Below are positions 8,845 through 62,570 of a stretch of DNA of 64,000 nucleotides, piece after piece. Origin of the DNA: a phage; sequence record PX880100.1; one strand, written 5' to 3'. Made by a program: the position numbers and the translations under genes. The notes beneath the pieces are model-generated. The model searched no databases. It saw nothing but the letters and a program-made list of their open reading frames with translations, and had not been told where the DNA came from. Position 1 is the first letter of the stretch. Each line of letters starts with the position of its first letter.

Positions 8845-11175
8845 ATGAGCCATCGCATTGAAAAAGTAATTAAACGTGACGGTACTGTAGAAGACTTTGC
8901 TCCTGAAAAACTCAATGGTTGGGCAGAGTATGGTTGCAAAACAGTTGATGTAAGTTGGTCAGCCATTACTATGGCTGCTCAAAAAACTCTACCTAAAGGG
9001 GTTGTAGATTCCGATACTCTGATGGACGCATTAATTAAGGCTGCCGAAAGTCTTATCAAAGATAACCCAGCATATGATGTGCCCGCAAAGGAATTACGTC
9101 TTGCGCAAATGCGTAAACGTCTTTATGACTCTTTCGAACCGCCTTCTCTGCGCTTCTTCCACGACCATATGGTTAGCGTAGGTGCATGGGAAGACATGAG
9201 TGCATGGATTACCGATGAGCAATTTGAAGCTCTGAATCAGGTTATCGACCATGATCGTGACCGTCTTTTTACTAGTGGTGGACTGAAGCAGTTCTTTGAT
9301 AAGTATTCCCGGCGTAACATAGCCACTGGTGAAATTTATGAAACTCCGCAGTTTGCCTACATGGGTATGGCAATGGCGATGCTATCTCAACCTAACTGGA
9401 CAATTCTAGATGCAATCGACCTCTACAACGCAATGTCACTCCACAAAATCAACGTTCCTACGCCGCCACTGGTTGGTCTGCGCTCTAGTGACCGTGGATT
9501 TGCTAGTTGCTGCCTCGTGGATTCCACTGACACGTTGGATTCAATCGACACCGCCGAGCACATCGTCTTCAAAATGGTCGCAGCCAGAGCGGGAATCGGG
9601 TATCATCTTGAAAGCCGATCAATTGCTGATCCGGTGCGAAATGGGGCATTCCCGCATTCCGGAAAACTGCCATATTATCGACACATTGACCGCTCAGTAA
9701 AGGCTAATACTCAGCAAACTCGTGGTGGTTCTGCTACAGTGTCTTATCCATACTTCGATCCTGAAATCATTCAATTGATGCAGGTTAAGCAACAACGTGC
9801 TACAGATGAGAATAAAATCGATAAGATGGATTATTCTCTGAGCTTCAACAATCTTTTGTTAAAACGTTATCTGAAAAATGAAGATATTACGCTAATGTCA
9901 TACTTCTATGCTCCAGAAGTTCATGAAGCGTTTTATAGTGATGACGAGGCTAAATTTGAAGAAATCTACGTGGCAGCGGAGAAACGTGTGGCATCTCTTA
10001 CAAAGATCGACCACGAAGGAAAAACAGTTCCAGCAGCTCCTAAAGTCTGTGCAAAAGAAATCCTAGATACTTGGCTACGTATCCGAATGGAAACAGGACG
10101 TATGTATGCTCATCACATCGGGGAATCTAATCGTCACGGTAACTTCCTTGATCCGATCCGTATGACAAACCTTTGTGTTGAAATTACTCAGCCTACACGC
10201 CCGTTCCATCATATCACAGAGCTGTATAAGACAAAAGAGCAGCTTGATCAAATGAAGCCGGAGGATATTGGTGAAGTATCTCTGTGTAACTTAGGTGGTG
10301 TTGTACTTGGACGCATGGAATCTCTGGCTGAGTGGGAAAAAACTTGCTACATCCTTCTGAAATTCGTTGATACAATTATTGAAATTCAGGATTATCCATT
10401 CCCAACTATGGAATATACGGCTAAGAAACGTCGTAATGTTGGTATTGGCCTGATGAACGCAGCAGGTGCAATGGCAGCAGAAGGTCTGGCTTATGAAGGT
10501 ATTGAAGCCCGTAACTGGATTCACCGTGAGGCTGAAAAACTGTCTTACTTTCTGCATAAAGCCTCTGTACGCCTAGCTAAAGAACAGGGTGCATGTGAGT
10601 GGTTTGATCGTACTAAACCATCTAAAGGAATTCTGGTAATCGACACTTACAAGAAAACTGTTGATGAACTGGTATCCGTAGGTCTAGAAATGGATTGGGA
10701 GTCTCTGCGTGCAGATATTCTGAAATATGGTATGCGTAACTCTGTTCTGACTGCTCAGATGCCGGGAGAAAGTTCTTCTGTTCTGTTAGGTGTTACTAAC
10801 TCTATTGAACCGCCTCGTAAGATTGTATCTATCAAAGGTAGTGCAGTGAATAAAGTAATTGCAATTGCTCCGGGTGCAACCGATTGGGAAACGTTAATGA
10901 GCTATAAACTGGCTTATGATGTAGATCGTATTGAGTGGATCAAATGGGTAGCAACTATGCAGAAATTCTTCAGTCAGTCTATCAGTACGAATATGTACTA
11001 TGACTACACCAAGTTTGAGAATGAAATCATTCCTGGCCCAGTAGTAGTTCGTGATTTCATGACTGCTGTTAAGTATGGTTGGAAGACTTTCTATTACGCA
11101 AACTTCAACACCGCTAATGGTGGTGGTGCAGGAGAAGAATCCGCAGGCTGCGCTTCTGGTGGTTGTACCATCTAA
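8845..11175 (+). CDS. nrdA: ribonucleoside-diphosphate reductase large subunit (class Ia)
   Basis: ATP-cone-like N-terminus; NLCVEI active-site region; start trimmed to ATG with upstream AAGGAAAG. Confidence 0.9.
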   Translation: MSHRIEKVIKRDGTVEDFAPEKLNGWAEYGCKTVDVSWSAITMAAQKTLPKGVVDSDTLMDALIKAAESLIKDNPAYDVPAKELRLAQMRKRLYDSFEPPSLRFFHDHMVSVGAWEDMSAWITDEQFEALNQVIDHDRDRLFTSGGLKQFFDKYSRRNIATGEIYETPQFAYMGMAMAMLSQPNWTILDAIDLYNAMSLHKINVPTPPLVGLRSSDRGFASCCLVDSTDTLDSIDTAEHIVFKMVAARAGIGYHLESRSIADPVRNGAFPHSGKLPYYRHIDRSVKANTQQTRGGSATVSYPYFDPEIIQLMQVKQQRATDENKIDKMDYSLSFNNLLLKRYLKNEDITLMSYFYAPEVHEAFYSDDEAKFEEIYVAAEKRVASLTKIDHEGKTVPAAPKVCAKEILDTWLRIRMETGRMYAHHIGESNRHGNFLDPIRMTNLCVEITQPTRPFHHITELYKTKEQLDQMKPEDIGEVSLCNLGGVVLGRMESLAEWEKTCYILLKFVDTIIEIQDYPFPTMEYTAKKRRNVGIGLMNAAGAMAAEGLAYEGIEARNWIHREAEKLSYFLHKASVRLAKEQGACEWFDRTKPSKGILVIDTYKKTVDELVSVGLEMDWESLRADILKYGMRNSVLTAQMPGESSSVLLGVTNSIEPPRKIVSIKGSAVNKVIAIAPGATDWETLMSYKLAYDVDRIEWIKWVATMQKFFSQSISTNMYYDYTKFENEIIPGPVVVRDFMTAVKYGWKTFYYANFNTANGGGAGEESAGCASGGCTI

Positions 11176-14645: not shown

Positions 14646-14914
14646 TGTCTATTCTTTTATCTGCTTTAGAAGCAAAACAAAATACTATTGCTGTTATTAA
14701 ACAGGAAGTACTTAATCTAGAGTCACTTATTGCCGTAGAGATTGATAAAGCAATCAAAGAAAAAGAATTTAACTGCCATATTCAGGGATTAACTGAATAT
14801 TCAGAAAACGCCAGAAACAGCGTTATGCAACGACTCACTAAACTAGGCTATGTCGTAGAAGCTAAGTATGAGCAGCGTGAAGGTTTTTGGCTTGAAATTG
14901 ACTGGAGCAAATAA
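14645..14914 (+). CDS. hypothetical protein
   Basis: ORF track; overlapping start/stop coupling. Confidence 0.4.
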   Translation: MSILLSALEAKQNTIAVIKQEVLNLESLIAVEIDKAIKEKEFNCHIQGLTEYSENARNSVMQRLTKLGYVVEAKYEQREGFWLEIDWSK

Positions 14915-15390
14915 TGTCGGTTTTCCACATTTACACAGATGGTGCTTGTAAGTCTAACCCAGGTCCAGGTGCTTGGGGTTTTATTGTCTATGATGATAAC
15001 GACGATCGTTTAGGTTCTAAATCTGGTTATAATCCTAAAACTACAAATAATGAGATGGAACTCACAGCTATTGTAGAAGCTCTACGTTGGTCTGTTAAAA
15101 AAGATAATAGACCAATTGCTATCTATACTGACTCTGCTTATTGCAAAAATGGCATGGAAAGTTGGATGTTTTCTTGGCAAAAGAAAGGCTGGAAGAAAGC
15201 AGATGGTGAAGTTCCTCTTAATCTAGAACTTTGGCAGGAAGCATTTAAATTAACACAGCAGTATATCAACTTTCATAATACTAATCCTACCTTTATTAAG
15301 GTTAAAGGGCATTCTGGTATTAGTGGTAATGAAGCTGTAGATGCATTGTGTAATACAGTTATTACCGAGCAAGAACTTGCCGATATGTAA
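14914..15390 (+). CDS. rnh: ribonuclease H
   Basis: YTDGAC...ELTAI...YTDS...HSG..NE.D RNase HI motifs. Confidence 0.85.
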   Translation: MSVFHIYTDGACKSNPGPGAWGFIVYDDNDDRLGSKSGYNPKTTNNEMELTAIVEALRWSVKKDNRPIAIYTDSAYCKNGMESWMFSWQKKGWKKADGEVPLNLELWQEAFKLTQQYINFHNTNPTFIKVKGHSGISGNEAVDALCNTVITEQELADM

Positions 15391-15466
15391 TAAATAAATT
15401 AAAAATTTTCTTGCTTAAAGCCCTCTAATTTAGTATAATATTCGTATTGAAAGTGAGGAGGGCTTT

Positions 15467-15745
15467 ATGCGAATTTATAACTCAAATTCACTAGGATTTA
15501 AACCATTGAGAAAACGTGCACAATCACCTCGTCAAATAAGAAAGGCTAATATTGGTGAGCCAGAAACACGTCTTCCACCCCCTCCAGAACAACGTTTAGT
15601 TTATCTGGACGAAGAATTAGCTAAACGCGAAAGAAAAGCTCAAGAAGAGATTGAGCGTAAGAAAATGTGTACTGCTCCGGCGTATAATAAAGGAGCGTAT
15701 CAATATGTCTCAGATGCTGAACAAGCTAAGATGGTTGGTAGATAA
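15467..15745 (+). CDS. hypothetical protein
   Basis: ORF track; promoter and GGAGG upstream. Confidence 0.45.
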   Translation: MRIYNSNSLGFKPLRKRAQSPRQIRKANIGEPETRLPPPPEQRLVYLDEELAKRERKAQEEIERKKMCTAPAYNKGAYQYVSDAEQAKMVGR

Positions 15746-15761
15746 TTTTTAAAAAATTCAT

Positions 15762-15790
15762 TTGCTAAACGCTTCAAATTCTCGTATAAT
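15762..15790 (+). promoter_or_regulatory. N25-like early promoter
   Basis: A-tract, TTGCTA-17 bp-TATAAT, then CATAAATTGAT. Confidence 0.65.
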
Positions 15791-15828
15791 ATACTTCATA
15801 AATTGATAAACAAAAAGGAAAACAAATA

Positions 15829-16344
15829 ATGGCTAAGCAGAAAAACGCAAAAACTCAAGCAGCTCCGGCAGTTAAAACTTTCCCGCAGACTGAGGCTAAT
15901 CGCAAAGCTCGTCTGGAACGTCACCTGCGTAAGCATCCTACCGATGCTCAGGCTGCTCAAGCACTGAATAATCCGGCTCCGATTCGTCAGAAGCCTAAAG
16001 CTAAAAATGCCACCCGTAAATCCTACAAAATGGTTATGTATGTAGAAAATTACGGACACAAATCTGTCCCAGTTTCCCTGAGCTTCAACGCTGGGGCTGA
16101 ATTGTTCTCTCGTAATGGTATGTCTATGAAAGACTATGAGAAGGCAGTTAACCAGAAACGTAAACCAACAGCAGATGTATTGCGTGATACTCGTGGACAG
16201 TTTGGTTCTGTTAAGCCAAATATCTTTGGCGTAGAGTATAGTAAAGATAATGTTCGTGCTCTGTGTTACGGTGTAGGCATTAAGTTCACGGGTGATTCTG
16301 CTCGTAAATCTGCTAAACCAGCTCGCAAGCGTAAAGCGAAGTAA
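15829..16344 (+). CDS. hypothetical highly basic protein
   Basis: K/R-rich termini; host-optimal codons (ctg, cgt, ggt). Confidence 0.5.
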   Translation: MAKQKNAKTQAAPAVKTFPQTEANRKARLERHLRKHPTDAQAAQALNNPAPIRQKPKAKNATRKSYKMVMYVENYGHKSVPVSLSFNAGAELFSRNGMSMKDYEKAVNQKRKPTADVLRDTRGQFGSVKPNIFGVEYSKDNVRALCYGVGIKFTGDSARKSAKPARKRKAK

Positions 16345-16407
16345 TAGATAAATAGGGGCAGAAGCCCCTACAATCTACTAATTCTCTAACTAATCAAGGA
16401 TATTTTT

Positions 16408-16623
16408 ATGTTCTCTAAGAAACCACGCTCCGTTACTGAAATCGTTGCTTCCTTTACCACTATCACTGATGAGCTTCAAGCTCGTATTGAGGCTGATCAA
16501 AAAATTGCTGCGGATATTCAGAAACAGCAGGAAGAACTCGCTTTAAAGTTGGCTGAAACCAACAAGAGTGAAAAATCTGCCCAAACTATTATGGAAAATA
16601 TCCTTAAACTGCTGGGCAAGTGA
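16408..16623 (+). CDS. hypothetical protein
   Basis: ORF track; terminator hairpin downstream. Confidence 0.45.
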   Translation: MFSKKPRSVTEIVASFTTITDELQARIEADQKIAADIQKQQEELALKLAETNKSEKSAQTIMENILKLLGK

Positions 16624-16664
16624 TTTAAATCAGGGGGCGAAAGCCCCTCTTATTTGGAGAAACT

Positions 16665-16901
16665 ATGCGTAATTTTGTAGCAAAGAATGATTTTAACCGT
16701 GCTAGCACTCATAAGTCCGCTAGAGATTATACACGACTTTCTAGTCATGAGGTAATGGATACCTGTTATGAAGAGCTGGAAGGTAGCTGGAATGAGTGGC
16801 CCGACTTCTCTATGGAAGAGAACTGGGATGTCAGTGAGGATATGCTTCCTGGTTTTAAAGACCCCAAGAAGTGGGAGTCTATTAAAGAGACAGCTCTTTA
16901 A
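16665..16901 (+). CDS. hypothetical acidic protein
   Basis: ORF track. Confidence 0.4.
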   Translation: MRNFVAKNDFNRASTHKSARDYTRLSSHEVMDTCYEELEGSWNEWPDFSMEENWDVSEDMLPGFKDPKKWESIKETAL

Positions 16902-16929
16902 TAGTTTTCTACACAATAAAGGATAAGTT

Positions 16930-17631
16930 ATGAAAGTAAAACCATTTGGTATGCTAGATATTGAATCTCTGGGAACTCCAGGAGATTGTGGTACTACTCA
17001 TATCGCAATGCCTTCTTTCGCTTTTGTGGCTATGCATGGAATTGATAAAGACCCTGATCTAATATTTGTTACTTTGGATGTACAAGATCAGCTTAATTCT
17101 GGTGCCAAAGTTACAGCATCTACTCTAGCATTCTGGATGGATCAAGCTAAAAATAGCCCGTCTGCTATCCACATTATGGAAGCTATGAAGGAACGTAATC
17201 CAAAACTGATTGCCTTCCAAAATGGTAAACATCATTGCACTAATAAACTCGGCTCTAACTATGCTGCCTACTCTATGGCTAAAAATATTATGGAGTTGGC
17301 TTTAGGCGAAAATGCTTTGTATTATGGCAACGGTCCAGAGTTTGATATGACTATCTACTCTGCAAACACGTTCCATGCTGGAACCAATGAAGAGGTAGTT
17401 CCGTGGAAATTCTGGAATTTGGGTAATGTTCGATCTCTTCGTAACCTCTGGATGCAAGCTGGATACAGTTATAAAGCTCTAGAGACCGAAGGTATTAGCT
17501 GGGCAATAGCTAAAATGGAGAAGATGGACACCATTCGTTATGGGATCTATCCGGTTAAGCACGACCCAGCATTTGATGCCTTAGTTGAAAGCTATTGTGT
17601 TGCAGCTATGATCGAAAAAATGAAAATTTGA
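16930..17631 (+). CDS. DEDDh-type 3'-5' exonuclease (DnaQ-like)
   Basis: LDIESLG exo motif I; C-terminal H-x4-D (HDPAFDA). Confidence 0.55.
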   Translation: MKVKPFGMLDIESLGTPGDCGTTHIAMPSFAFVAMHGIDKDPDLIFVTLDVQDQLNSGAKVTASTLAFWMDQAKNSPSAIHIMEAMKERNPKLIAFQNGKHHCTNKLGSNYAAYSMAKNIMELALGENALYYGNGPEFDMTIYSANTFHAGTNEEVVPWKFWNLGNVRSLRNLWMQAGYSYKALETEGISWAIAKMEKMDTIRYGIYPVKHDPAFDALVESYCVAAMIEKMKI

Positions 17632-46818: not shown

Positions 46819-47432
46819 TGTTTACACAACAACCTATTCAAGTAGTACCAGACCATGAACTGAACACATGGGATTATAGCTTTAAAGATTTAACTGCTAC
46901 TGTACAATTCAAATCTATGAAGCTAACATTTGCACACACTGACCTTAGAGCCTGTAAAGATCTTGAAAGTAAGCTCGAAGATGCTCGTAAGATTTTTGGC
47001 ACGGCTCGCATCCCGGCTGATAACCTGATTAATGCACTGATCGATGCAGGGTACAAACTTGTGAAGACTGAGGTAAATCGTCCCAGTACCCCAGTGACTA
47101 TTAGAGATCCGTGGCAATCAGGGCCAATCGCAATGCTAAATAACTCCGATAAAAGATTAATGTCGGATATGCACAATGTTCCTTGTGGGGGTGTGATAAG
47201 TAGTACGCAGTCATATAAGTTTGCGGAAGATTACGGCCCATCTGTGCAGTTAAAACATACTCAAGAAGCTTTTGAATCTGATATACGAAGCGCAGCACCT
47301 GCGGATGCTGGAGTTTCTAGGAGTTCTGTTTGTACTACTCATTTTAATAATCCTAGTAAACATGGAAGTTTAGAGGATGCTATTATGGAGGCGTTAGGAG
47401 CTGCTCTTAATGAAGATAAGAGAGGTAATTAA
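46818..47432 (+). CDS. hypothetical protein
   Basis: ORF track. Confidence 0.45.
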   Translation: MFTQQPIQVVPDHELNTWDYSFKDLTATVQFKSMKLTFAHTDLRACKDLESKLEDARKIFGTARIPADNLINALIDAGYKLVKTEVNRPSTPVTIRDPWQSGPIAMLNNSDKRLMSDMHNVPCGGVISSTQSYKFAEDYGPSVQLKHTQEAFESDIRSAAPADAGVSRSSVCTTHFNNPSKHGSLEDAIMEALGAALNEDKRGN

Positions 47433-48322: not shown

Positions 48323-48659
48323 ACTCTACTTGACGTTATGATTTCTGCATGTTATAATAACTCTATGAAATAACATAGAATAAAGAGATCCACCCGGATA
48401 CGGATAGTGGATGGGAAACTTCTATTTCCCCCGTAGCTTGTCGGAGGGCTAGGGAAATCTTAAGAAGTTTTGTACCATCTCACGCAATTCGTATCCCAGG
48501 GGTGGAGCATCTCTTCCAATCTTTGGGGGATCTTATATTTAAATTAAAGGTAAAACTTTTGACCACATAATTTACATTCAAGATGATACACTTGTTGCCA
48601 CCGCTCTTCCTAGGATGGCACGACACTTTCTAGTAGACTCCTAAGTTTCTAGGAAAATC

Positions 48660-49398
48660 CTGTCGTATTTGCACATATTATAGGGCAGTTTCTCTCCTGC
48701 TATAAATATCCTAGGCCGGTTTTCCTACACAGGGCGGTTATTGGGAGGGCGGTTATTTCTAGAAGACATTTTTCCAAAACACATTTCCAGAATTCATTGT
48801 CGGATTCGCACATTGTGTTTCTAGAAATTTATGGTCGGATTTGCACAATCGCCTAAGTTTTTAGGAACATATAATCTCCTGAAAATGGCAGCATTATTTC
48901 GGGCCGAAGGCCCATGATTGCCTGAGTTTTTAGAGCCACAAGAATTTTCGCTTGTCAAGCTATTTTGCCCCATTTAGCTAATAAAATTTTACCTTTTCTG
49001 CACTTATCTCAAATTAACCCAAATCTTCTCAACTCTTCCCCAAAATCCCCGCAAATCAGGTGCTCCGCACCAAACATGCACCTCTCTCACAGTTCTCTCA
49101 AATTTTTCTCGCTCTCTCAACTTCTCCCCGAACTCATACAATCACACACCCTCTAATCGAAGTCACAAAAATCTTGTCGGATTCGCACAAATAAACCCAT
49201 GTCGGATCTGCACATACTCTAGCTAATTCCACAGGATTGATGCGCAGCATCGGATTGCTGGAGTTTTTGGGAAAATTCATTGTCGGATTTGCACACTATA
49301 AAAATTTTTCGGGTCGGATTTGCACACTACCAAAAATTGTCGGATTTGCACATACACGCCCACGCGTAATCCATGGGGGCAAATGTCGGATTTGCACA
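48660..49398 (+). repeat. nine direct copies of the 15-bp motif TGTCGGATTTGCACA at irregular spacing (injection-stop-like region)
   Basis: Copies near 48660, 48798, 48834, 49175, 49199, 49280, 49312, 49338, 49384, all same orientation. Confidence 0.85.
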
Positions 49399-49441
49399 AA
49401 AGCGCAGGGCAATTGCCCTGCTCGCCTGAATGCGAATAAAA

Positions 49442-49612
49442 ATGAGAATGATTCTCATTTAAAAAGCGGAATGCGAATGATAATGATTCGTATTTAAGAA
49501 TGGAAATGAGAATTATTCAGGAAGTGAAACGATTCTCATTTAAAAAGTGGAATGATTATTAGTTACATAGTAAAACGCGAATGATAATGATTCGTATTTA
49601 AGAATGGAAGAG
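49442..49612. repeat. tandem repeats with embedded palindromes (AATGAGAATGATTCTCATT; CGAATGATAATGATTCG...)
   Basis: Two copies of each ~40-bp unit; related palindrome at 49939-49957; 18-bp palindrome GCAGGGCAATTGCCCTGC at 49404-49421. Confidence 0.8.
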
Positions 49613-49620
49613 AGAAACAC

Positions 49621-49810
49621 TATTATTTAAGTTATCCACAGACTTATTAACAGCACGATTTGACTTGACAGAATCCTAGCCATTTTGAGGCGTTATTAAC
49701 AGACTTATCCACAGCTTATCCTACTGTATAAATATACAGTATTCCTACGCAGTGAATAATTCTAATATAGCGTTAAAACGTCCTAGATCGCATTCTAACG
49801 CGTTTAATTT
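49621..49810. repeat. left ~180-bp inverted repeat with two consensus DnaA boxes (49632-49640, 49705-49713)
   Basis: TTATCCACA x2; imperfect reverse-complement match to 53280-53460. Confidence 0.75.
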
Positions 49811-50107
49811 TGTTGGGGATACTAAAACAAGGGCAAAATTGGAGGAGGCTTAGAAATTAGTTAGCTCGCTAACGATCACACAAGGCGACACGTAACACCC
49901 TAACCATTAGCAGGCTAACCATCGCGGGCGCGGTCAAATGAGAATCATTCTCATTTGAGAATTGGGGGCACTTCCCGATAGTTGCGCCCCGTGATTATTA
50001 CAGTAGTGGGCAACCGTTACGTTTTGCCCACTCCCGCCACTCATCTTGATACCTAGACTTGCGACGGCGTACTAAAAACCGTTTATACCAGTGATTAAAC
50101 CATTGTT

Positions 50108-50341
50108 TCATAAATCCTCCTCCGGTAGTCGATGCGTGATTTTTTCCTCCTCCCCGTAGGAATCCGCCAAATGCTGATAATAACCATCGTGATCATAAAT
50201 CACTTTATCATACTCGCCACGCTCGACCGCTTGCCGATTCTCCGGCGTATCGGGCACATAAAAAACATCAACCATTGTACTAGTTTTGGTCACAATAATT
50301 TTATTGCTCATAATAACTCCTAGTAAATATATTTTTGCCAA
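50108..50341 (-). CDS. hypothetical protein
   Basis: ORF track; GC-richer module. Confidence 0.4.
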   Translation of the reverse strand: MAKIYLLGVIMSNKIIVTKTSTMVDVFYVPDTPENRQAVERGEYDKVIYDHDGYYQHLADSYGEEEKITHRLPEEDL

Positions 50342-50411
50342 TAGTGGCGAACGTTATCGCCACCAGCGGAATCATTAGCTGCCTCAACATTACCAACGAA
50401 AATATATAATT

Positions 50412-50795
50412 TCATTGCGCCACCTTTCGAAACGCTGTTTCAATACTATCAGCGGTGGATTGAATATACGCGCCTTTCATTATCAGGCGCTCGGTGCACA
50501 CCTTGCGGAAAATATTAATAAAATCATCTTCATTTTCTGCAATTAACGCTTCACCCATAACCTGAACATCACAAGATGCAAAGGTCAAAAATTGAAACGC
50601 TAGTTCACGGGCAACGACCGCATTGATTTTATAATGCGCCTTGCCCTCATAAATATTAATAACGCCCTTATAAGCGGGTGAAAGCTGATTCAAATAGTTT
50701 GCTAGTAATGCCGGACGGCAATTAGCAACAAAACGATTGCCTTCATAAATAACCATTTTATAACACCCCACGAAACGCAGCGTAAAAGGTGGCAA
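50412..50795 (-). CDS. hypothetical protein
   Basis: ORF track; start uncertain. Confidence 0.4.
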   Translation of the reverse strand: MPPFTLRFVGCYKMVIYEGNRFVANCRPALLANYLNQLSPAYKGVINIYEGKAHYKINAVVARELAFQFLTFASCDVQVMGEALIAENEDDFINIFRKVCTERLIMKGAYIQSTADSIETAFRKVAQ

Positions 50796-50970
50796 AGTGT
50801 TTAACCGTTTCAGCGATCACGTTGCCGCGCTTGTCGAATTTTTTCTCAGTAACACGAAAGGCATTTTTATTACGTGCTACATATTCGATTTTACAGTCTT
50901 CACGCTCGAACGTGTTAACGTCCACCAGCTTAAAGCCTTTCGAACGTGCAAGGGAAACGTTACGAATCAT
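50758..50970 (-). CDS. hypothetical protein
   Basis: ORF track. Confidence 0.35.
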   Translation of the reverse strand: MIRNVSLARSKGFKLVDVNTFEREDCKIEYVARNKNAFRVTEKKFDKRGNVIAETVKHFATFYAAFRGVL

Positions 50971-51168
50971 TTTTATTCTCCTTTACCAGTCATGCAGCCC
51001 AGCAGATAAGAAAACGCAGCAATTACCGCGCCAATAATAACGGCGTGAACACCGAAAGCTATTGCAAACAACGATAAAATAGCGCCCAAGATACCCGCCA
51101 GAATAGCTCGAAAAATAATCATTTTTATTCTCCTAGTCAGTGGGGGATATAATATCCCCCGTTACTAA

Positions 51169-51399
51169 TTACATTAAAACAATTTTTGCAGCTTGTTTTT
51201 TAGTACAGTGTTCCGCTTTCAGCGTGTCCAGCAAAAAGCCCGCCGTTTGCTGATCGATTTTATCGGCGTTGTATAGTTCTTGGATGGTGTTATAAGTTTT
51301 AGCAATGCCGAACTCCTGCACCATTTCATGAATGATTACGCGATTAGACACCCAACCTTGAGCGGTGAACAGATGACTAGCAGAAGAGTATGCAACCAT
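51169..51399 (-). CDS. hypothetical protein
   Basis: ORF track. Confidence 0.4.
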   Translation of the reverse strand: MVAYSSASHLFTAQGWVSNRVIIHEMVQEFGIAKTYNTIQELYNADKIDQQTAGFLLDTLKAEHCTKKQAAKIVLM

Positions 51400-51503
51400 T
51401 TTAAGCCTCCAAATTTTTGGGAAATTTTCAATCCACCGTTTTGGTGTAAAGGCATTATAACAAAAAAGGCCACCATAAAAGGCGACCTTTACAAAACTTT
51501 ACA

Positions 51504-51998
51504 TTAGACTACCTGCAAGGATTCAATATTGAAACATCGTTTCAATTCGTCATGCAAGACAGCATATTCCTCCCATCGGGTACTATCAGGAATATAAACA
51601 AGCTGTTTTAGTCGATTTGCGTATATTACCGCTTTGTTACCAACTATCTCGACGCCACCATATTTAATAATTAATTTCATGACGGAATTAATAGGATCGC
51701 CGCCGTTTACATATGTGCCGGATTTACTTAACTGATAATGATAAAGACTTGCGTATACGTTTTCATTCTCATACCATTCGCCCGTTTCCTCATCCTCATA
51801 TCCATCGCTACCAAAACGAGAAGCATTATCAATAGCCATTTCGTGAGCTAAAGCGTCCAGATCCGTACCAGCAGGAACAAAATATTCCTCGGTATTCCCT
51901 TCCCCGCAATAGCCAGTATGACAATCGACTAAAATGATCATATCATGTTTAGCCGTGCTCACTTCTCCTAGCGAGAAGCCGTATTTTTCCTCAGCCAT
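51504..51998 (-). CDS. hypothetical protein
   Basis: ORF track; SD-like sequence upstream. Confidence 0.5.
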   Translation of the reverse strand: MAEEKYGFSLGEVSTAKHDMIILVDCHTGYCGEGNTEEYFVPAGTDLDALAHEMAIDNASRFGSDGYEDEETGEWYENENVYASLYHYQLSKSGTYVNGGDPINSVMKLIIKYGGVEIVGNKAVIYANRLKQLVYIPDSTRWEEYAVLHDELKRCFNIESLQVV

Positions 51999-52063
51999 TT
52001 ATTAGTCTCCTATTAGTTAACAAGGGAATAGTAAAGCGGGGAAATAATCCCCACTAGATATTA

Positions 52064-53074
52064 TTACTCGCTTTCGGTGTTAGTGGTAAAAGTAGAAATA
52101 TCGATACCTTTTACCATTTCATCAATCATTTCAGCGATGTTAAAACTTTGCACCATTTCCAGCATTGCCGCTTCCATAGCTGCGCCTGCTACCGCTTTCG
52201 CCTTTTGGTTACTCGGTGCGTACTGGTCAACCGCTACACTCAGCAGGTTGGCAATCACTACTCGACCAATAGGCGTATCGATATAACCTTTGATCATGAA
52301 CGGTGCTTTTTTAGCCGCTACTTTCGTAATTTGAGTCAGTGCAATTTTACCCGCTTCCAGTTTTGCAGCATTTACAACAGCGGATTTATTAGCGGCAACG
52401 ATGTTAGCAATCTTGGTCATGGTATTTTTTCCTTTGTTTTCAGTAGTTTGAGTATTAACATTTTGAGTGTTAGAATTTACAGCATGGTTTTCTACGCTGT
52501 CAATAATCTGATCTTCATCTTTCCAGAAAGAAAAACCAGCGCTTTCTATATCCCCATCATAAATATACGGGTATAACTCCCGTGGTAACAAAAAATTACC
52601 ATCGCCATCAAAAGCCATTATACCAGTATATTGAGATCCGTCGTTATCCGGCTTATGCCATCCAGCGGGTAAATACTTCCAGATAACATCTAAAAATCCC
52701 TCAATGCTAGAAAGTCCATTTATCAGATCAAGCCCAATAAGCTCGAAACCATTTATATTAAATGATTGACGGCCTGAATTGCTATGATACGCAACAATAT
52801 TATTACCCTGCGCAATAATAAAATCGGCATCCGGCCCCGCTCCCCTGCCTGTAAAGATATGGCAATCCCGATTATATAAAACTAGCGTTGCCCCTTGTTT
52901 ATATAACGGCAAAAAACCATCCATATCATAAGCGTCATAATCATCAAAAAAGTTTTGATGAATAGTCTCAATCTTGTTAATAAAATGTTTAATGCTGGTT
53001 GACTTGCTACCGTCCAGCAGGTTGCGCAGCGCCCCCTTTAATACGGTAGCATTATCAGGTTGATACAGCCTCAT
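52064..53074 (-). CDS. hypothetical protein (about 336 aa)
   Basis: Track ORF 52064..53242 trimmed to ATG 9 nt after GAGGGAGG. Confidence 0.5.
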   Translation of the reverse strand: MRLYQPDNATVLKGALRNLLDGSKSTSIKHFINKIETIHQNFFDDYDAYDMDGFLPLYKQGATLVLYNRDCHIFTGRGAGPDADFIIAQGNNIVAYHSNSGRQSFNINGFELIGLDLINGLSSIEGFLDVIWKYLPAGWHKPDNDGSQYTGIMAFDGDGNFLLPRELYPYIYDGDIESAGFSFWKDEDQIIDSVENHAVNSNTQNVNTQTTENKGKNTMTKIANIVAANKSAVVNAAKLEAGKIALTQITKVAAKKAPFMIKGYIDTPIGRVVIANLLSVAVDQYAPSNQKAKAVAGAAMEAAMLEMVQSFNIAEMIDEMVKGIDISTFTTNTESE

Positions 53075-53279
53075 TTGTTCGGCCTCCCTCGTTAATCGGT
53101 GAGTGAATGATATAGATATTTGTCCACTAGGGGCAAGAAAAAAGAAAATGTTTTTTATTCCTTGCCTAGCGCCTATTTTTATGCTAACCGCGCAGCGGTG
53201 CAATAAAGAGCAAACCACGGCGAAGCCACCAGGGCGACGCATTAAGGCTTTACTTTAATATTACCCCGCAGCGTTTAGC

Positions 53280-53460
53280 TCGTTAGAATGCGTTTTAAGC
53301 CGCTTAAAATTGATTGCAGTTGTTAACACTACCTTTTTACCCTGTATATTTATACAGTAGAATAACCTGTGGATAAGTCTGTGCAAAAGTCCTTATATCG
53401 CCGCCTATCGTGTCAAATTATTTTGTGCTGTGGATAACGTTGTGGATAACTTAAATGATA
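53280..53460. repeat. right ~180-bp inverted repeat with three consensus DnaA boxes on minus strand
   Basis: TGTGGATAA at 53368, 53429, 53441; reverse-complement partner of 49621-49810. Confidence 0.75.
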
Positions 53461-54180
53461 GTGGTTCTCACTTAGCTAGATGATTTCTTATAGTTATTAT
53501 TTCTCATTAATTTATATGTATATTATATATCATGAAATAATTAGTTAGCTAATGAGATTTTCCGTGATTAATAGTCAGCTAATAGTTTAGGCTGTTACAA
53601 TCCACCAGCATGATTATCATCCTAGCAATTATTAGCCTGCTATCTTTCTGATGCATACTAACAAATAAAAGTCAATTAATTTATTTCATAAAATAAGTAG
53701 TTATCCACTGGAAAATAAAAGTCAAGTGGATAACTAGGAAAATTTCATTTTTGCTTTTGGGGATAAGTTATCAACAGGGCTAGAATGCGCCTAAAACGCC
53801 CTAGAACGTGATGAAGTTTTTAGCCATCCCATCATAAGGGGATAAGCCGTTTATCGCTGCCACGAGCTTTTTAGATTTTGTCAAGTAGGGGAAAGCAAAT
53901 ATAAATGAAAAAATTACTTGCCTATTTGCTTTATTTTGTGGTATTCACGCGCCCGTTTCTTTTAATTTTAGGCCATCGCCGCACGGTGTCCGGTGAGTTT
54001 TGTCTTTACGTTTCTTTACAAAAATAAGGTTGCGCCATTTTTGGGAATCCCCTATTATTTATCACGTAGGGCGGCAATGACGAACTACACGGCGGGAAGT
54101 TTACCGCCACGCTCTTTAAAAATTGGGTACATCTTAAAGCCTATCGGCGGTAAACTTATTCATTATAAGGAATCGACGAT

Positions 54181-54384
54181 ATGAAACAAACTCTTTTGAT
54201 CACTGGTAAGCCTATTAAGGCACTAGATAGCAAAACAAAAAATTTGTTGACAGTAGCGCAAAGATCGGTAAAATATCGATTTAAGCAGTACAAGAAAGGT
54301 CGCCAGCAAGGTCTGGAAATGATCTGGCGAAATATTATGATTGACCTGAAAGAAAATCATAAAAAACTGCAAAAAATTGTTTGA
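54181..54384 (+). CDS. hypothetical basic protein (pre-early block)
   Basis: ORF track; AAGGAAT upstream. Confidence 0.4.
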   Translation: MKQTLLITGKPIKALDSKTKNLLTVAQRSVKYRFKQYKKGRQQGLEMIWRNIMIDLKENHKKLQKIV

Positions 54385-54610
54385 CAACCTAGCCGATAGG
54401 TTTTAAGATGTACCCAGTTCGATAAGAGCGATAACTTGATAAAATTTGACGGTCGGTGCTTACCATAATGCACCCCGCCCCCTAACGGGATATAGCGGCC
54501 TACGTGGAGTTCTTTAAATTGATTATAGCGGCGGGAGGATTGTTACTTATTACCTGCTACCTTCTAGCAGGTAATGCGGAACAATCCATCAAATAACTGG
54601 AGTTTATACT

Positions 54611-54862
54611 ATGCAAAACGTTATTACCGCGCCAAAAATTGGTCAATCCGTCTTTATTCCTTTCGTTACTAAAACGGATGAATTAACCGGAAAAGCCGAA
54701 CGCATTAAAGGTGCGGCGCTTATGCCGTTCGATACAATCGACGCGGTATACGCTGAAAATGAACGCAGTAACAACGGCAAGCCCGTTTTTAGCGTTCGCG
54801 TTAAATCCGGCGATGTTGTAAAGGTTGTTCAACGCAACGAAAAATGGGAAGCTGTTTTGTAA
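54611..54862 (+). CDS. hypothetical protein (pre-early block)
   Basis: ORF track; GGAG upstream; terminator hairpin downstream. Confidence 0.45.
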   Translation: MQNVITAPKIGQSVFIPFVTKTDELTGKAERIKGAALMPFDTIDAVYAENERSNNGKPVFSVRVKSGDVVKVVQRNEKWEAVL

Positions 54863-54963
54863 TTTAGTGTTAACTTTATATTCCCCTGAAATATGGGGAA
54901 TATAACGATTAACATTAAGTTAATCATTAAATCCCTTAAATTAAACTAATAGGAGTTTTTACC

Positions 54964-55371
54964 ATGACTAACGCAAAAACCGCAAAATTCGCATGGAATG
55001 AAGAAAACACTCAGAAAGCTGTTACCATGTACCAGCAGTTAATCAACGAAAACGGTTTAGATTTTGCAAATAGCGACGGCCTGAAAGAGATTGCAAAAGC
55101 AGTAGGCGCGGCCTCCCCCGTATCCGTTCGGTCAAAATTGACCAGTGCAAAAGCCTATCAAAAAAGCGATAAGCCGCGTAAAGTTGGCGGCGGTAGCTCT
55201 GTGCGTAAAGCTCACTATGTGCGAGTAATTGCAAAACACGCTATCGATTCCGGTATTATCAAAGACGCCGATGATCTGGCAAGCCTTGAAAGTGCTAAAC
55301 TGGAAACGCTGGACGCGGTGGCGCAACTGTTAGGCGTTGCCGATGAAGTAAAACAAGCCGCAGGCGAATAA
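54964..55371 (+). CDS. A2: A2-like pre-early protein
   Basis: 135 aa, upstream of A1-like gene, matching T5 pre-early layout; identity from size and context only. Confidence 0.5.
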   Translation: MTNAKTAKFAWNEENTQKAVTMYQQLINENGLDFANSDGLKEIAKAVGAASPVSVRSKLTSAKAYQKSDKPRKVGGGSSVRKAHYVRVIAKHAIDSGIIKDADDLASLESAKLETLDAVAQLLGVADEVKQAAGE

Positions 55372-55461
55372 TAGTTATACCTTGCCCCCTTCTAGTAAGG
55401 GGGCAATAATATAACTGTTTAGCGATAGTTATTTTCTTCCCTTAAATCAGGAGTTTTAAAA

Positions 55462-55659
55462 ATGGTTTTCTTTCCTACTGAATCTTTAATTCTAGGCTTA
55501 TTTATTATGGCGGCCTCGTTATTGTTCGCTTATTTTCAAAATGATTTAGATTCATATTATTTTAAGCGTAAGTCTAAATTGGCAAAGCGTTTAGGTCTGA
55601 TTTGTTTTATTGCCGCCGTTGCTTGTGGTGTTAGTTCTAGCCTTATGCCTTTAAATTAA
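55462..55659 (+). CDS. hypothetical small membrane protein
   Basis: Two hydrophobic helices. Confidence 0.4.
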   Translation: MVFFPTESLILGLFIMAASLLFAYFQNDLDSYYFKRKSKLAKRLGLICFIAAVACGVSSSLMPLN

Positions 55660-55749
55660 TGTTGCAAATTATAACGCCTATTGTTCGAGGCGTTATATTT
55701 GGCAATATTGCCATTATTAATCTAATCCCTTTAATGGAGTTTTATTACT

Positions 55750-57414
55750 ATGATTATTTCCGCAGAAAAACAAACCGTTATCCTGAAAATGGCCGCTGAC
55801 TTTAATTTCTATGGTAAACGTCTGCGCGCTACTAAACTGGAAGTCTGCGACGATATTTCGAAAGCGGTATACGATACTACTAAACACTCCACCGCCATTT
55901 GTGATTGGTTGGAAGCAAATAAGCCAGCGAAACCAAAAGCGGCAAAAGTAGCAAAAGCCATTAAAAACGATGAGCGCCCAGAAGCGGCTGGGATTGTTTC
56001 TAGCACGGTTGAGCAATGGGAAGTAAAACAAGGTAAACGCTTTATTATTACGTCGATTCAGAATAATACTTTCCCGCATAAAAACTTTTTAGCCTCACTG
56101 GAGCAATTTGCTAAATATATCGGTGCTGATTTGCTTGTTTCTAAGTATATTTATAATAAAAACGGCTTCCAGAATGGAGAAGGTGCGGATGGAATCAAAT
56201 ATGATTCCGCTTTTGATAAATATATTTGCAGCAAAAACGTGTTTTTAAATAACCGCCGTTTCGCTTTCATGGCTGAAATTAATGTTTTGCCAACCGCAGA
56301 TTATCCGCTTTCTGGATTCGCAGAAACTGCAACGGCTTTAAATATTGAAGGTCTGGCAATTGGTCACGCTAAAATTACCGCTGAAAGTGTGCCAGCTTTG
56401 AAAGGTGAAGTAGTGCGCCGCATGTATTCAACCGGAACGGCAACGCTCAAAAACTACATTCAGCAGAAAGCAGGACAGAAAGCGGAAGCACTTCATAACT
56501 TCGGTGCGCTGATTGTTGAGTTCGACGACGACGGGGAATTTTTTGTTCGCCAGCTTGAAACAATGGACGAAAGCGGGGTGTTTTATGATCTGAATGTTTG
56601 CGCTACTCCTGCCGGATGCTATGAAACATCGGGGCATGTTTTAGGCTTGCAATACGGCGATATTCACGCCGAAAAATTAGATGACGATTGCGCCGCTGCG
56701 TCATGGGCTGGCGAAAATAGCTTGCTTGATATTCTTAAACCAAAATATCAGTTTGTGCACGACGTTCACGATTTTACATCGCGCAATCATCATAACCGCG
56801 CGTCGGGTGTATTCCTAGCAAAACAGTACGCCGCCGGACGTGATAAAGTTCTGGATGATCTTATCGATACCGGTCGCGTGCTGGAGTCGATGGAACGTGA
56901 TTTTAGTCAAACGATCATCGTAGAATCTAATCACGATTTGGCGCTATCCCGTTGGCTTGATGATCGTAATGCTAACATCAAAGACGATCCCGCGAACGCG
57001 GAACTGTATCACCGCCTGAATGCTGCAATCTATGCGGCAATCGGTGAACACGACGAAACGTTTAACGTGCTAGATTATGCGTTGCGCAAGGTTGCAGGTT
57101 GCGAGTTTAACGCCATTTTTCTGACCACTGACCAATCTTTCAAGATTGCAGGCATTGAATGCGGCGTACACGGTCACAACGGCATTAACGGCAGCCGTGG
57201 CAATCCTAAGCAGTTTAAGAAATTGGGCAAGTTAAACACCGGACACACTCACACTGCCAGCATTTACGGCGGCGTATATACCGCTGGCGTTGCTGGTAGT
57301 CTGGATATGGGTTACAACGTGGGCGCGTCAAGCTGGACGCAAACGCATTTAATTACCTATGCAAACGGTCAGCGCACTTTGATTGACTTTAAGAATGGTA
57401 AATTCTTTGCGTAA
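55750..57414 (+). CDS. A1: A1-like pre-early protein (metallophosphatase-like)
   Basis: 554 aa; GDIH and ESNHD metallophosphatase-like motifs; context with A2 and dmp. Confidence 0.6.
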   Translation: MIISAEKQTVILKMAADFNFYGKRLRATKLEVCDDISKAVYDTTKHSTAICDWLEANKPAKPKAAKVAKAIKNDERPEAAGIVSSTVEQWEVKQGKRFIITSIQNNTFPHKNFLASLEQFAKYIGADLLVSKYIYNKNGFQNGEGADGIKYDSAFDKYICSKNVFLNNRRFAFMAEINVLPTADYPLSGFAETATALNIEGLAIGHAKITAESVPALKGEVVRRMYSTGTATLKNYIQQKAGQKAEALHNFGALIVEFDDDGEFFVRQLETMDESGVFYDLNVCATPAGCYETSGHVLGLQYGDIHAEKLDDDCAAASWAGENSLLDILKPKYQFVHDVHDFTSRNHHNRASGVFLAKQYAAGRDKVLDDLIDTGRVLESMERDFSQTIIVESNHDLALSRWLDDRNANIKDDPANAELYHRLNAAIYAAIGEHDETFNVLDYALRKVAGCEFNAIFLTTDQSFKIAGIECGVHGHNGINGSRGNPKQFKKLGKLNTGHTHTASIYGGVYTAGVAGSLDMGYNVGASSWTQTHLITYANGQRTLIDFKNGKFFA

Positions 57415-57470
57415 TTAAATTATTTCCCTAGCGGCTTGAAATAAAGCCGCTATTATAGGAGTCACAAAAA

Positions 57471-57728
57471 ATGAAAGTTACATTACCCAAAACATTGGAC
57501 GAAAAAGTATTCATTTCACCGGATGAAATGGAATCCGATAAAGTTTACAGCTTCGGGCCTATCCTAGCCTCCAAAACTGATACTGATGGTATTATTTCCG
57601 TCGATTCCCGTGATAATGATATTGTTCCTTTTGATGACGATGGCGCTTTTTATGAGTGGTTAAGCGATAATAATTTACCCGTAAACGGTGAATTAACGCC
57701 GTACCAGATGCAGATTATTATCAAATAA
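57471..57728 (+). CDS. hypothetical acidic protein
   Basis: ORF track; GGAG upstream. Confidence 0.4.
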   Translation: MKVTLPKTLDEKVFISPDEMESDKVYSFGPILASKTDTDGIISVDSRDNDIVPFDDDGAFYEWLSDNNLPVNGELTPYQMQIIIK

Positions 57729-57766
57729 ATTAAATCCATTATTAAACTAATTGGGGTTTTATAAAT

Positions 57767-58159
57767 ATGAAAAAGCAAAATATTCCATTCGATCGCGCTC
57801 AATCTTCCATTGTTCTGGTTTATTCTAATGGTGAACGTTACCACGTCGAGGCGGGGCACGTTATTGATGATCTGTTAGATTTCAATGACGCTTTGCAGGT
57901 TACTACGTTTGCCTATACGCAGGGCAAACTAACCAGCCATATTAAAGCAAAAGGTGTTTATGTTGACACGGTGAAACAAGAAACGATTATCATCGACGCC
58001 GTAAAATCCGGTCTAGCCTTTGCAGTTGTCGCGCCTTGCCTCGCTTGCCTCGATGATCAATTGATCAGCGCAAAAGTATATACTTGTGCGGGGATTCGTT
58101 CCAGCGTATCCGGTGAAGATGTTAGTTTTATTGCCGATGCGTTGGCTTATGGTCTTTAA
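57767..58159 (+). CDS. hypothetical protein
   Basis: ORF track. Confidence 0.4.
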   Translation: MKKQNIPFDRAQSSIVLVYSNGERYHVEAGHVIDDLLDFNDALQVTTFAYTQGKLTSHIKAKGVYVDTVKQETIIIDAVKSGLAFAVVAPCLACLDDQLISAKVYTCAGIRSSVSGEDVSFIADALAYGL

Positions 58160-58239
58160 TAGTTAATTTATTATTACCCGCTATCTACAAGCGGGTAATG
58201 CTGAATTAATCTAATCCCTTAAATGGAGAACGTAACAAA

Positions 58240-58974
58240 ATGAATAAAGCTATTATGAATATTTCCCGCAGCTTCCCGCATATTTCCCGCGTTATGATTT
58301 GGGATTTAGACGGCACTATCGTTAATTCTTTCCATCGTGTAGCGCCTTGCTTTGATAGTGAGGGCAATTTAGATTTAAATAAGTATAAAAATGAAGCGTG
58401 TAAACATCATTTAATAATGCAGGATTCTTTATTGCCATTGGTTGAATACATGCGCCAATGTATGAATGACGCAAATACTTTAAACATTATTTGTACCGCT
58501 CGACTAATGAGCAAATCAGATTATTACTTCCTGCGTAAACAAGGTCTGCGCGGTCGTGGTAATAGTAATATCCGCGTGTTTTCCCGTGATACACTACACA
58601 AATATTTTGAAGCTGATAAAGTTAGCGAGATATACCACAGTAAGGACGCAGTTTATAAATCTTATTATTTTGAATTATTTAAACAGTTATATCCGAACGC
58701 TGATTTTACAATGATTGATGATCATAAAGGTGTATTATCAGCGGCGGCATCATACGGATTTAAAACGCTGGACGCACAAGCCGTTAATGATATTCTATCA
58801 ATCGGCGTGGCATTGATAGGTGAAACCTTTATTGATGAATCTCTCGACGATGATAATGATTATCAGTTCCTAGCTGATCGTTTGAAATTATGCTGGGAAG
58901 GTATGACCGAGGAAGAACGCGCAGAATATAGTTGCAGCCCGCAACAATATATTGAGAAATTAAAAGTTGCGTAA
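58240..58974 (+). CDS. dmp: 5'-deoxyribonucleotidase (HAD-like)
   Basis: 244 aa; N-terminal MIWDLDGTIVNSF (DxDGT); pre-early context. Confidence 0.65.
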   Translation: MNKAIMNISRSFPHISRVMIWDLDGTIVNSFHRVAPCFDSEGNLDLNKYKNEACKHHLIMQDSLLPLVEYMRQCMNDANTLNIICTARLMSKSDYYFLRKQGLRGRGNSNIRVFSRDTLHKYFEADKVSEIYHSKDAVYKSYYFELFKQLYPNADFTMIDDHKGVLSAAASYGFKTLDAQAVNDILSIGVALIGETFIDESLDDDNDYQFLADRLKLCWEGMTEEERAEYSCSPQQYIEKLKVA

Positions 58975-59125
58975 TAATTAAAGTTGAAATAGTCACGGTG
59001 TGTAATGATAACATGCCGTGACTATTAGCTTGCTAAGTACCGGGCGGTAATGAGACTCATTCTCATCTGGGAGGCCACTGGACACACCTCCATGTGTAAT
59101 CTTATGAAATTTGGCAAAAGTCAAA

Positions 59126-62087: not shown

Positions 62088-62570
62088 ATGGCAAATGATG
62101 TATTAGTACCAGATCTTATGTCCCCTGAAGGGATGGATGTGATTGAAGCTTATTTACAGTGCGGAAGTGATGTGCCTTCTGCCGCACGTAGTCTTGGAAT
62201 GTCCGAAATTGCTTTCCGAGATATTATGAATCGTAGCGAAGTTAAGAACTACTTAAACGATATTTTTATGGAAAGTGGATTCCGTAACAGAGATCGTTTG
62301 TTCGGTGTTCTAGATGAAGTTATTAAACGTAAGCTAGAGGAACTAGAAGAAACTGGCATGGGTTCTGACCAGGATATTATGGATATTCTCTGGAAGGCAC
62401 ATAAAATGAAGATGGAAGAGATGAAAATGATGGTGGAACTAGAAAAAGCTAAAGCTGCCGTACGAGCTCCAGCTAACCAGACCAATATCCAGAATAACAT
62501 TATTGCTGGAGCTGGGGATCAAAACTACATGGACTTAATTACTTCCCTAGCTACTGGAGGTAAGAAGTAA
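62088..62570 (+). CDS. putative terminase small subunit (HTH)
   Basis: HTH-like [17 protein letters not shown]; immediately upstream of terminase large subunit. Confidence 0.45.

Follow-up and report, generated by a model that had tools for sequence, protein, structure and literature searches.

Nine direct repeats around the terminal repeat end in the T5-like counterpart of the injection stop region

The phage sequence record PX880100.1 was analysed over a stretch of 64,000 nucleotides (one strand, 5′ to 3′; hereafter the window), and we describe here a repeat region at 48660–49620 in which a 15-bp sequence, TGTCGGATTTGCACA, is iterated nine times. The window contains 24 tRNA genes and matched 456 phage records, nearly all of them T5-like (Demerecviridae). 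T5 1–50000 is colinear with the window in reversed orientation, and window 48524–49833 showed 87% identity over 1,354 nt with T5 9317–10661, so that the T5-like phage guessed in a preliminary description of this DNA was confirmed by both identity and synteny. Position 1 of T5 maps to about window 59084, and on its far side a receptor-binding protein gene and the small and large terminase genes are found. The repeats are flanked by A1, A2 and dmp on one side and by homologues of T5.018 and T5.019 on the other, matching the T5 synteny. Judged by this homology, 48660–49620 is the homologue of T5 "Repeat Region 3", which holds the annotated injection stop signal (iss). Its features are those of an iss region: it lies at the junction of pre-early and early genes at the end of the terminal repeat (TR), it is homologous to the iss, and it combines the 15-mers with C/E palindromes and paired DnaA boxes. 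The T5 injection stop signal and Repeat Region 3 are reportedly to be credited to Heusterspreute et al. in 1987 and Davison in 2015, besides later work. The region is poor in open reading frames (ORFs); those overlapping it are all ≤86 aa and the T5 records contain no annotated coding sequence there, in agreement with the earlier wording "essentially ORF-free".

The nine 15-mers contain 0–1 mismatch each and all lie on the + strand, as the preliminary description had it (one orientation, irregular spacing). They form two clusters 327 bp apart, an outer one of three copies and an inner one of six, with successive spacings of 137, 35, 342, 25, 81, 31, 26 and 46 bp. Through homology to AY587007, the nine 15-mers were identified as T5 direct repeat D (DRD) copies 9 to 1. 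With up to two mismatches, 11 matches to the 15-mer occurred in the window against 0.05 in first-order Markov random sequence; with up to three, 1.5 would be expected by chance in the whole window. Coordinates of the array and of the other features are collected in the table.

The repeat region is already described and named, and its observation here adds nothing to GenBank and the literature. In NC_005859 the "injection stop signal (iss)" is annotated at 9140..10149, corresponding to about window 49000–50010. AY587007 (Wang et al. 2005) lists direct repeat D copies 1–6 in the left TR, copies 7–9 just outside it, copy 10 in ORF019 and copies 11–12 in the exo2/D13 gene, together with direct repeat C copies 1–4, palindromes C–J and the TR end. 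According to Davison, the repeat region reaches 270 bp into unique DNA, paired DnaA boxes are proposed to bind membrane-bound DnaA and so to stop the injection, and the likely iss consists of the IRD'-spacer-IRC' element and the DRE units; no role was given to DRD. In the literature the repeats are regarded as probable binding sites of proteins, and the iterated protein-binding sites suspected from the pattern in the preliminary description agree with this view. Papers of 2023 and 2026 state that functional studies of the iss are lacking and that its mechanism is still poorly understood.

The right end of the TR was located by homology. The T5 end is NC_005859 10219, equal to AY587007 10139 (there is an 80-nt offset between the two records), and the records of HASG4, SPC35 and L6jm terminate at exactly the T5-equivalent base, GAGCCACA... 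The assembly contains a single collapsed TR copy, at about 48933–59084. The end falls inside the fourth of four copies of a CCTRAGTTTYTAG motif (48640, 48815, 48852 and 48921), and a search for a common cleavage motif at both TR boundaries revealed nothing beyond a 10-mer. A GC hairpin, GGGCCGAAGGCCC, is found at 48901–48913, 20 nt outside the end.

Concerning the array, this end lies in the gap between the two clusters, 85 bp past the outer and 242 bp ahead of the inner one, and the outer cluster is single-copy DNA beyond the annotated iss. The same position in the inter-cluster gap was found in all cases examined, namely T5, HASG4, SPC35, L6jm, saus111K, chee158, IME260, My1 and VF16; the Salmonella phages bastian and phagemcphageface were left out, their records containing no usable TR annotation. 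The copies are differently divided between the outside and the inside of the TR, six and five in IME260, three and six in My1, and two and seven in Vibrio phage VF16, for which the end was determined with PhageTerm. In nine phages, then, the DRD array adjoins the cut that forms the mature genome end, which is the position looked for in a terminase site.

Coordinates of the features discussed, in window positions (PWM, position weight matrix)
Feature	Position	Strand	Remarks
Isolated weaker DRD-like copy, TGTCGGATATGCACA	47161..47175	+	Inside the T5.019-homologue gene; T5 'direct repeat D copy 10'
DRD copy 9, TGTCGTATTTGCACA	48661..48675	+	Outer cluster, unique DNA outside TR; PWM 21.8 bits; AY587007 homology
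DRD copy 8, TGTCGGATTCGCACA	48798..48812	+	Outer cluster; PWM, AY587007 homology
DRD copy 7, GGTCGGATTTGCACA	48833..48847	+	Outer cluster; 85 bp short of TR end
Inferred right end of the long TR	48932/48933		Homology to T5 TR end
G-depleted (C/T/A-rich) tract between clusters	48960..49170	+	GC skew -0.61 to -0.67; holds T5 'direct repeat A' copies
DRD copy 6	49175..49189	+	Inner cluster, within TR
DRD copy 5, TGTCGGATCTGCACA	49200..49214	+	Inner cluster
DRD copy 4, exact consensus	49281..49295	+	Inner cluster
DRD copy 3, GGTCGGATTTGCACA	49312..49326	+	Inner cluster
DRD copy 2, exact consensus	49338..49352	+	Inner cluster
DRD copy 1, exact consensus	49384..49398	+	Inner cluster; within nick-site spacer
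Site homologous to T5 '7.9%' major single-strand nick	49361..49408	+	Upstream element CACGCGTAATCCATGG, then AA^GCGCAGGG; predicted nick 49401/49402
18-bp perfect palindrome GCAGGGCAATTGCCCTGC (T5 palindrome J)	49404..49421		Between last 15-mer and palindromic units
Tandem palindromic units (T5 direct repeats C/E, palindromes E-I), e.g. TGAGAATGATTCTCA, TGATAATGATTCGTA	49437..49616
Two DnaA box pairs, 3 bp within each pair	49632..49713	+	TTATCCACA-gac-TTATTAACA and TTATTAACA-gac-TTATCCACA; T5 IRC'-spacer-IRD'
LexA (SOS) box look-alike TACTGTATAAATATACAGTA (T5 palindrome D)	49722..49741		19/20 consensus matches
A2	54964-55371		phrog_1725
A1	55750-57414
dmp	58240-58974
Small terminase subunit	62088-62570		phrog_3802, E = 1e-90

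We consider it extremely improbable that the array arose by chance or represents a degenerate CRISPR array or the gene of a structured RNA. The + strand might be transcribed, since a promoter-like site lies upstream at 48330–48358, but no Rfam family was matched (best E = 0.59, far under the gathering scores) and the folding of the inner cluster did not stand out from shuffled controls (z = -1.8 and -0.2), so a structured RNA, which the preliminary description had kept as an alternative, was rejected. CRISPR, which it had already argued against, was rejected on the irregular spacing of 25–342 bp, the repeat of just 15 bp and the lack of any cas gene in the sequence examined (T5 1–50000 and 76500–82500). 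Chance is excluded by the 11 matches where 0.05 are expected.

The upstream site itself, 3′ of the last early gene, is a near-consensus promoter (TTGACG-17-TATAAT with a TG extension, + strand), and the next 180 nt or so form a long, very stable hairpin (-71 kcal/mol, z = -5.9) together with a stem that resembles a terminator. In T5 the corresponding stretch (10640–10880, - strand) has a different sequence and folds equally well (z = -6.5). The whole stretch (48330–48545, +) is a candidate small RNA, unannotated in T5 and without an Rfam match.

Several DRD-like sites were found away from the array. One, TGTCGGTTTTCCACA, lies on the same strand at 14915–14929 (17.5 bits) and did not reach that score in phage Kenya-K41. 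A tandem pair was found inside the D13 (SbcC-like) gene, at 78935 and 78950 in T5 and at 76222 and 76237 in Kenya-K41, where it encodes VQILQVQIRQ; this pair corresponds to AY587007 direct repeat D copies 11–12, is on the strand of the array and lies 362 nt from the 64.8% nick. Through a genome-wide scan, the high-scoring DRD sites were all found on one strand.

For the conservation of the motif, 95 DRD copies were pooled from 11 loci. Arrays were compared in T5, EPS7, DT57C, saus111K, S113, NBEco002, GreteKellenberger, Klebsiella phage IME260, Pectobacterium phage My1, Enterobacter phage KKP_3711 and Serratia phage Kamaji, with loci of Tequintavirus and Epseptimavirus among them. Each locus contained 8–11 copies on one strand only, despite diverged spacers, and the spacing was kept among close relatives only. 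The pooled motif is asymmetric and bounded at 14–15 nt, (T)GTCGGATT(T/C)GCACA, with a weak A-tract 5–9 nt upstream. The variants include TGTCGGATTTGCACA, ..GCACT and NNNNATTTTGCACC, and some lineages contained no DRD. Among ten close relatives, the conservation was 0.89 in the DRD columns against 0.78–0.84 in the spacers, and highest in palindrome J (0.98), the LexA-like box (0.945) and the DnaA region (0.93). A lack of conservation in related phages, which the preliminary description had named as a reason to give up its reading, was therefore not observed.

In the Vibrio phages Ceto and VF16 the array is kept with the motif changed to NNNNATTT(T/C)GCACC, often as 15-bp tandems; after it come a nick-like GCGCAG site and boxes of the types GTTATCCACAAC and ACTGTATATTTATACAGT. 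The tract between the clusters of VF16 also appeared G-poor when the sequence was judged by eye. Two distant metagenome-assembled T5-like relatives, L026 and L027 (A1 about 45% identical), have an inverted pre-early gene order, and no DRD was found in their long non-coding gaps (14400–16900 and 14700–17300, respectively). The L026 locus contains TGACCCTAAGCTG-like and ATGAAAGAAGTCTTTCA repeats and no TTATCCACA box, and L027 keeps three such boxes, with the reverse complement CAGCTTAGGGTCA over-represented.

The DnaA and LexA-like boxes thus stay at consensus in the Vibrio phages while the 15-mer drifts with the phage lineage, and because of this difference the comparison argues for a phage-encoded protein as the reader of DRD. 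The same evidence bears on another explanation, an extension of Davison's model, in which the DRDs are low-affinity DnaA boxes and the strong TTATCCACA pairs nucleate a DnaA oligomer that spreads over nine weak sites of the same orientation, as in oriC. The 3′ half of the repeat, ATTTGCACA, matches the relaxed consensus TTWTNCACA at 8 of 9 positions and the variant TGTCGGTTTTGCACA of EPS7 and S113 at all nine; this half is also the portion retained in the Vibrio phages, and strong DnaA boxes lie 230–320 bp away. However, the sole variable core position (T or C, 73:21) is one that a DnaA box would use (its position 4), and almost no variation is seen in the CGGA of the 5′ half, a part that DnaA would leave unread. 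Moreover, position 1 of the box is wrong in the 8/9 match, and one distant relative keeps TTATCCACA boxes while it contains no DRD and has a different short repeat over-represented. Low-affinity DnaA arrays in oriC follow an 11-bp register, against 25–81 bp between DRDs. On the conservation pattern and the relative with boxes only, DnaA was rejected as the reader of the 15-mer, and we give this explanation little probability.

The estimated pause point separates the region into two sides. Davison placed the end of the first-step transfer at AY587007 9618, which corresponds to about window 49450, within the first palindromic unit. All nine DRDs lie on the side still outside the cell at this pause, and the palindromic units, the DnaA boxes and the LexA-like box lie on the side already transferred. 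Thus, the injection-stop locus proposed in the preliminary description holds for the region as a whole, homologous to the annotated iss, but not readily for its 15-mers, which are not the candidates favoured in the literature, belong to the DNA not yet transferred and in three copies lie outside both the TR and the annotated iss.

On the transferred side, the palindromic units comprise a 76-nt unit present twice (49437–49512 and 49541–49616, 82% identical) and a 26-nt palindromic family with six members, such as AAATGAGAATGATTCTCATTT at 49440–49460. The preliminary description had noticed these units correctly and had put the 18-bp palindrome with them, downstream of the repeats; the palindrome is real but lies before the units. 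On the - strand, palindrome J is followed by a T-run and, from its sequence, looks like a terminator of pre-early transcription.

The palindromic units resemble the Fur-box 7-1-7 consensus TGATAATNATTATCA, with 12 of 14 matches at 49443 and 49939 and 13 of 14 in T5, DT57C, EPS7 and saus111K. The enrichment is modest, since four 7-1-7 sites with up to two mismatches were found in the window against 0.88 in first-order Markov random sequence. A perfect Fur-box palindrome, TGATAATGATTATCA, occurs at 58851–58865 (T5 233–247), in the 3′ end of dmp about 230 bp from the left genome end, and likewise in T5 and Kenya-K41 (random expectation 0.03 at up to one mismatch). In the Escherichia phage tuntematon, an unrelated 150-kb myovirus (Phapecoctavirus), a cluster of Fur-box-like units (GCAAATGATAATGATTCGCATTT and AAATGAGAATGATTATCATTT) was found at 2500–2610, in an intergenic 'repeat_region'. 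Because similar units occur in this unrelated phage, the resemblance hints that the palindromic units may be sites for a host protein, common to coliphages.

Next to the units, consensus DnaA boxes were found at 49632 and 49705. Six copies of the box TTATCCACA are present in the window where 0.65 would be expected (first-order Markov), and five of them fall within the two T5 repeat regions. The predicted LexA box beside them has the CTGT-N8-ACAG pattern with an AT-rich core, near TACTGTATATATATACAGTA; a second LexA-like box, CCCTGTATATTTATACAGTA, lies at 53340–53359, so that each T5 repeat region carrying DnaA boxes contains one. No such site occurred in 60 first-order Markov random sequences, against the two in the window, and the box is kept in T5, EPS7, DT57C, IME260 and the Vibrio phages Ceto and VF16. 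A resemblance to LexA or Fur is not mentioned in Davison 2020, and a full-text literature search, which did not cover the 1987 and 2015 T5 papers, was negative.

The inner cluster ends at the nick site. The T5 7.9% nick is annotated at NC_005859 9748/9749 on the minus strand, and the four T5 nick contexts were aligned. In the window, RRGCGCRGG occurs three times among 85 GCGC of the + strand, each time at a T5 nick homologue (22407, 36636 and 49401; T5 counterparts 39746, 22336 and 9748), and a further T5 major nick lies at 78573. The T5 major nicks share more than the published Pu^GCGC, namely an element of about CAYNYGTAAYNNTCGR roughly 22–37 nt upstream and ^GCGCRGG downstream. Since copy 1 abuts the 7.9% nick and the D13 tandem pair lies near the 64.8% nick, DRD was considered as a nick determinant; this was rejected, because the other two major nicks contain no DRD and share their own upstream element.

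The strand-asymmetric tract between the clusters (210 bp), the 15-mers of one orientation and the paired DnaA boxes give the locus a superficial layout of a plasmid origin, which would suit an iteron-type replication origin, with the tract as its easily melted part, or a plasmid-style partition site. We consider such a function very unlikely. The T5 origins, as the literature has it, lie near the genome middle by electron microscopy, and the replication genes are silent while only the first-step DNA is in the cell. T5 is virulent, so that a partition function is not needed. Iterons are usually spaced by about 22 bp, unlike the DRDs. No adjacent Rep, ParA or ParB gene was found in the T5 stretches read, and the two flanking genes on the early side gave no Pfam match; the partition-like locus of the preliminary description was consequently rejected.

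A more serious alternative, possible but doubtful in our judgement, is that the DRD array belongs to the transfer device. The repeats would be polar sites beyond the pause to which the pre-early DNA-binding protein A2, together with A1, binds one after another on their entry into the cell, providing a handle or Brownian ratchet for restarting and driving the second-step transfer; alternatively, a virion or host factor bound there would cause the stop. The inner cluster lies within the annotated iss and starts about 50 bp past the estimated end of the first-step transfer, and one shared orientation is expected of a polar process. A2 is annotated as DNA-binding and is needed with A1 for the transfer, and both belong to the few pre-early genes common to all T5-like phages. 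The A2 model consists of two small helical domains, whose weak best fold matches are helix-turn-helix types (transposase helix-turn-helix, Myb, homeodomain and CENP-B) that could, if the model is right, read an asymmetric 15-mer. From the nick to the outermost DRD there are 740 bp, about 250 nm, near the tail length reported for BF23, so that the array would span the tail at the pause.

Against this, the stop needs no phage protein synthesis, hence a newly made phage protein cannot cause it, and the DRDs are on the side yet to enter the cell. The three to six copies in unique DNA and the TR end in the gap of the array would also be left unexplained. None of the A2 fold matches reached significance (best E = 0.47), the AlphaFold model itself being of moderate confidence, and A2 gave no Pfam match and no PDB sequence match. 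In a 1981 study by Snyder and Benzinger, purified A2 reportedly bound DNA without sequence specificity, which also counts against a role of A2 at the repeats.

What the analysis shows is homology, conservation, the statistics of the motifs and where they lie with respect to the TR end and the nick; from these we infer all protein–DNA interactions and functions considered here, and our preferred reading, held tentatively and with somewhat less than even confidence, has two parts. In the first, DRD would be a genome-end recognition array; its copies would be oriented, iterated sites for a phage-encoded sequence-specific protein, most probably the small terminase subunit, and the two clusters bracketing the TR end would indicate where, and in which orientation, the right genome end is to be cut. 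Packaging and injection follow a last-in-first-out order as a general rule. The left end of T5 is injected first; by this rule its right end would be packaged first, and packaging would start at the DRD junction. In the second part, the Fur-box-like palindromes, the paired DnaA boxes and the LexA look-alike on the cell side would be the pause signal proper, probably occupied by resident host proteins, which agrees with the DnaA proposal of Davison.

Several points weigh against this two-part reading. In the literature read, no experiment shows a protein on DRD and no T5 pac or cos site is mapped, and no DRD was found near the left end of the TR. The extra copies inside genes (T5.019 and the D13 tandem pair) are unexplained by a pure end-recognition role, and the spacing of the repeats is irregular and conserved in close relatives only. 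The TR ends of several records were possibly set by homology to T5, those of T5 and VF16 being the clearly independent ones. Given the common ancestry of the lineages, the repeated finding of the TR end between the clusters does not represent independent events. The packaging direction comes from the general rule instead of from T5 data. The structure model of the small terminase is poor (pLDDT, predicted local distance difference test, 59) and its sequence gave no significant PDB match (best E = 0.3); structure prediction did not discriminate between the small terminase and A2. Finally, a role in DNA transfer is equally natural for DRD, since the inner cluster is part of the annotated iss and adjoins the estimated stop point.

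We might further speculate that the DRD array is the packaging site of T5-like phages, bound at both clusters by the small terminase, which would cut between them, and that the same junction, occupied on the cell side by host DnaA, LexA and Fur, sets the pause, so that one composite cis element would specify both the genome end and the injection in two steps; this we regard as rather unlikely. If true, it would explain the near-equal lengths of the transferred segment and the terminal repeat. How the entry of T5 DNA stops after 8% of the genome and then restarts has been an open question since the 1960s. The comparative picture separates the region into testable parts, on one side 15-mers that track the phage lineage and bracket the TR end, on the other the consensus-grade DnaA boxes, LexA-like boxes and Fur-like palindromes of the transferred side; the single-copy outer cluster is easy to edit. 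The value lies in a sharper division of a known region with candidate proteins (small terminase, A2, DnaA, LexA and Fur), not in a discovery.

Among known systems, the E. coli oriC and the iteron origins of plasmids, an analogy drawn by Davison, resemble the locus in the paired consensus DnaA boxes beside repeats of the same orientation; in contrast to them, the locus has no initiator gene or mapped origin, and the DRD core is unlike a DnaA box. Phage T7, also with staged DNA transfer, likewise has short direct-repeat arrays adjoining its direct terminal repeat, SRL and SRR. Those short repeat arrays next to the terminal repetition are said to have been described by Dunn and Studier in 1983. 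The motifs are unrelated, however, the T7 repeat is just 160 bp, and the function of the T7 arrays is also unproven.

The terminase recognition sites flanking the cut in lambda (cosQ-cosN-cosB, with the R1–R3 sites for gpNu1) and in SPP1 (pacL-pacC-pacR) offer a functional comparison for the preferred reading. By analogy, the DRD array would have iterated short elements on both sides of the genome-end site, oriented to the packaging direction, with the larger cluster on the side expected to be packaged first. Unlike those phages, T5 has 10-kb direct terminal repeats instead of cohesive or headful ends. The DRDs closest to the genome end are 85 and 242 bp away from it, the other TR boundary lacks a comparable array, and the binding of DRD by terminase is a candidate interaction.

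The closest system is T5 Repeat Region 3 itself. The differences are small sequence variants: copy 9 of the window (TGTCGTATTTGCACA) and copy 5 (..ATCTG..) differ from those of T5, and the palindromic units differ in number and sequence. The flanking genes are the same, and so is the order of the elements: DRD 9 to 1 with the TR end and the direct repeat A tract, the 7.9% nick, palindrome J, the C/E units, the DnaA pairs and palindrome D.

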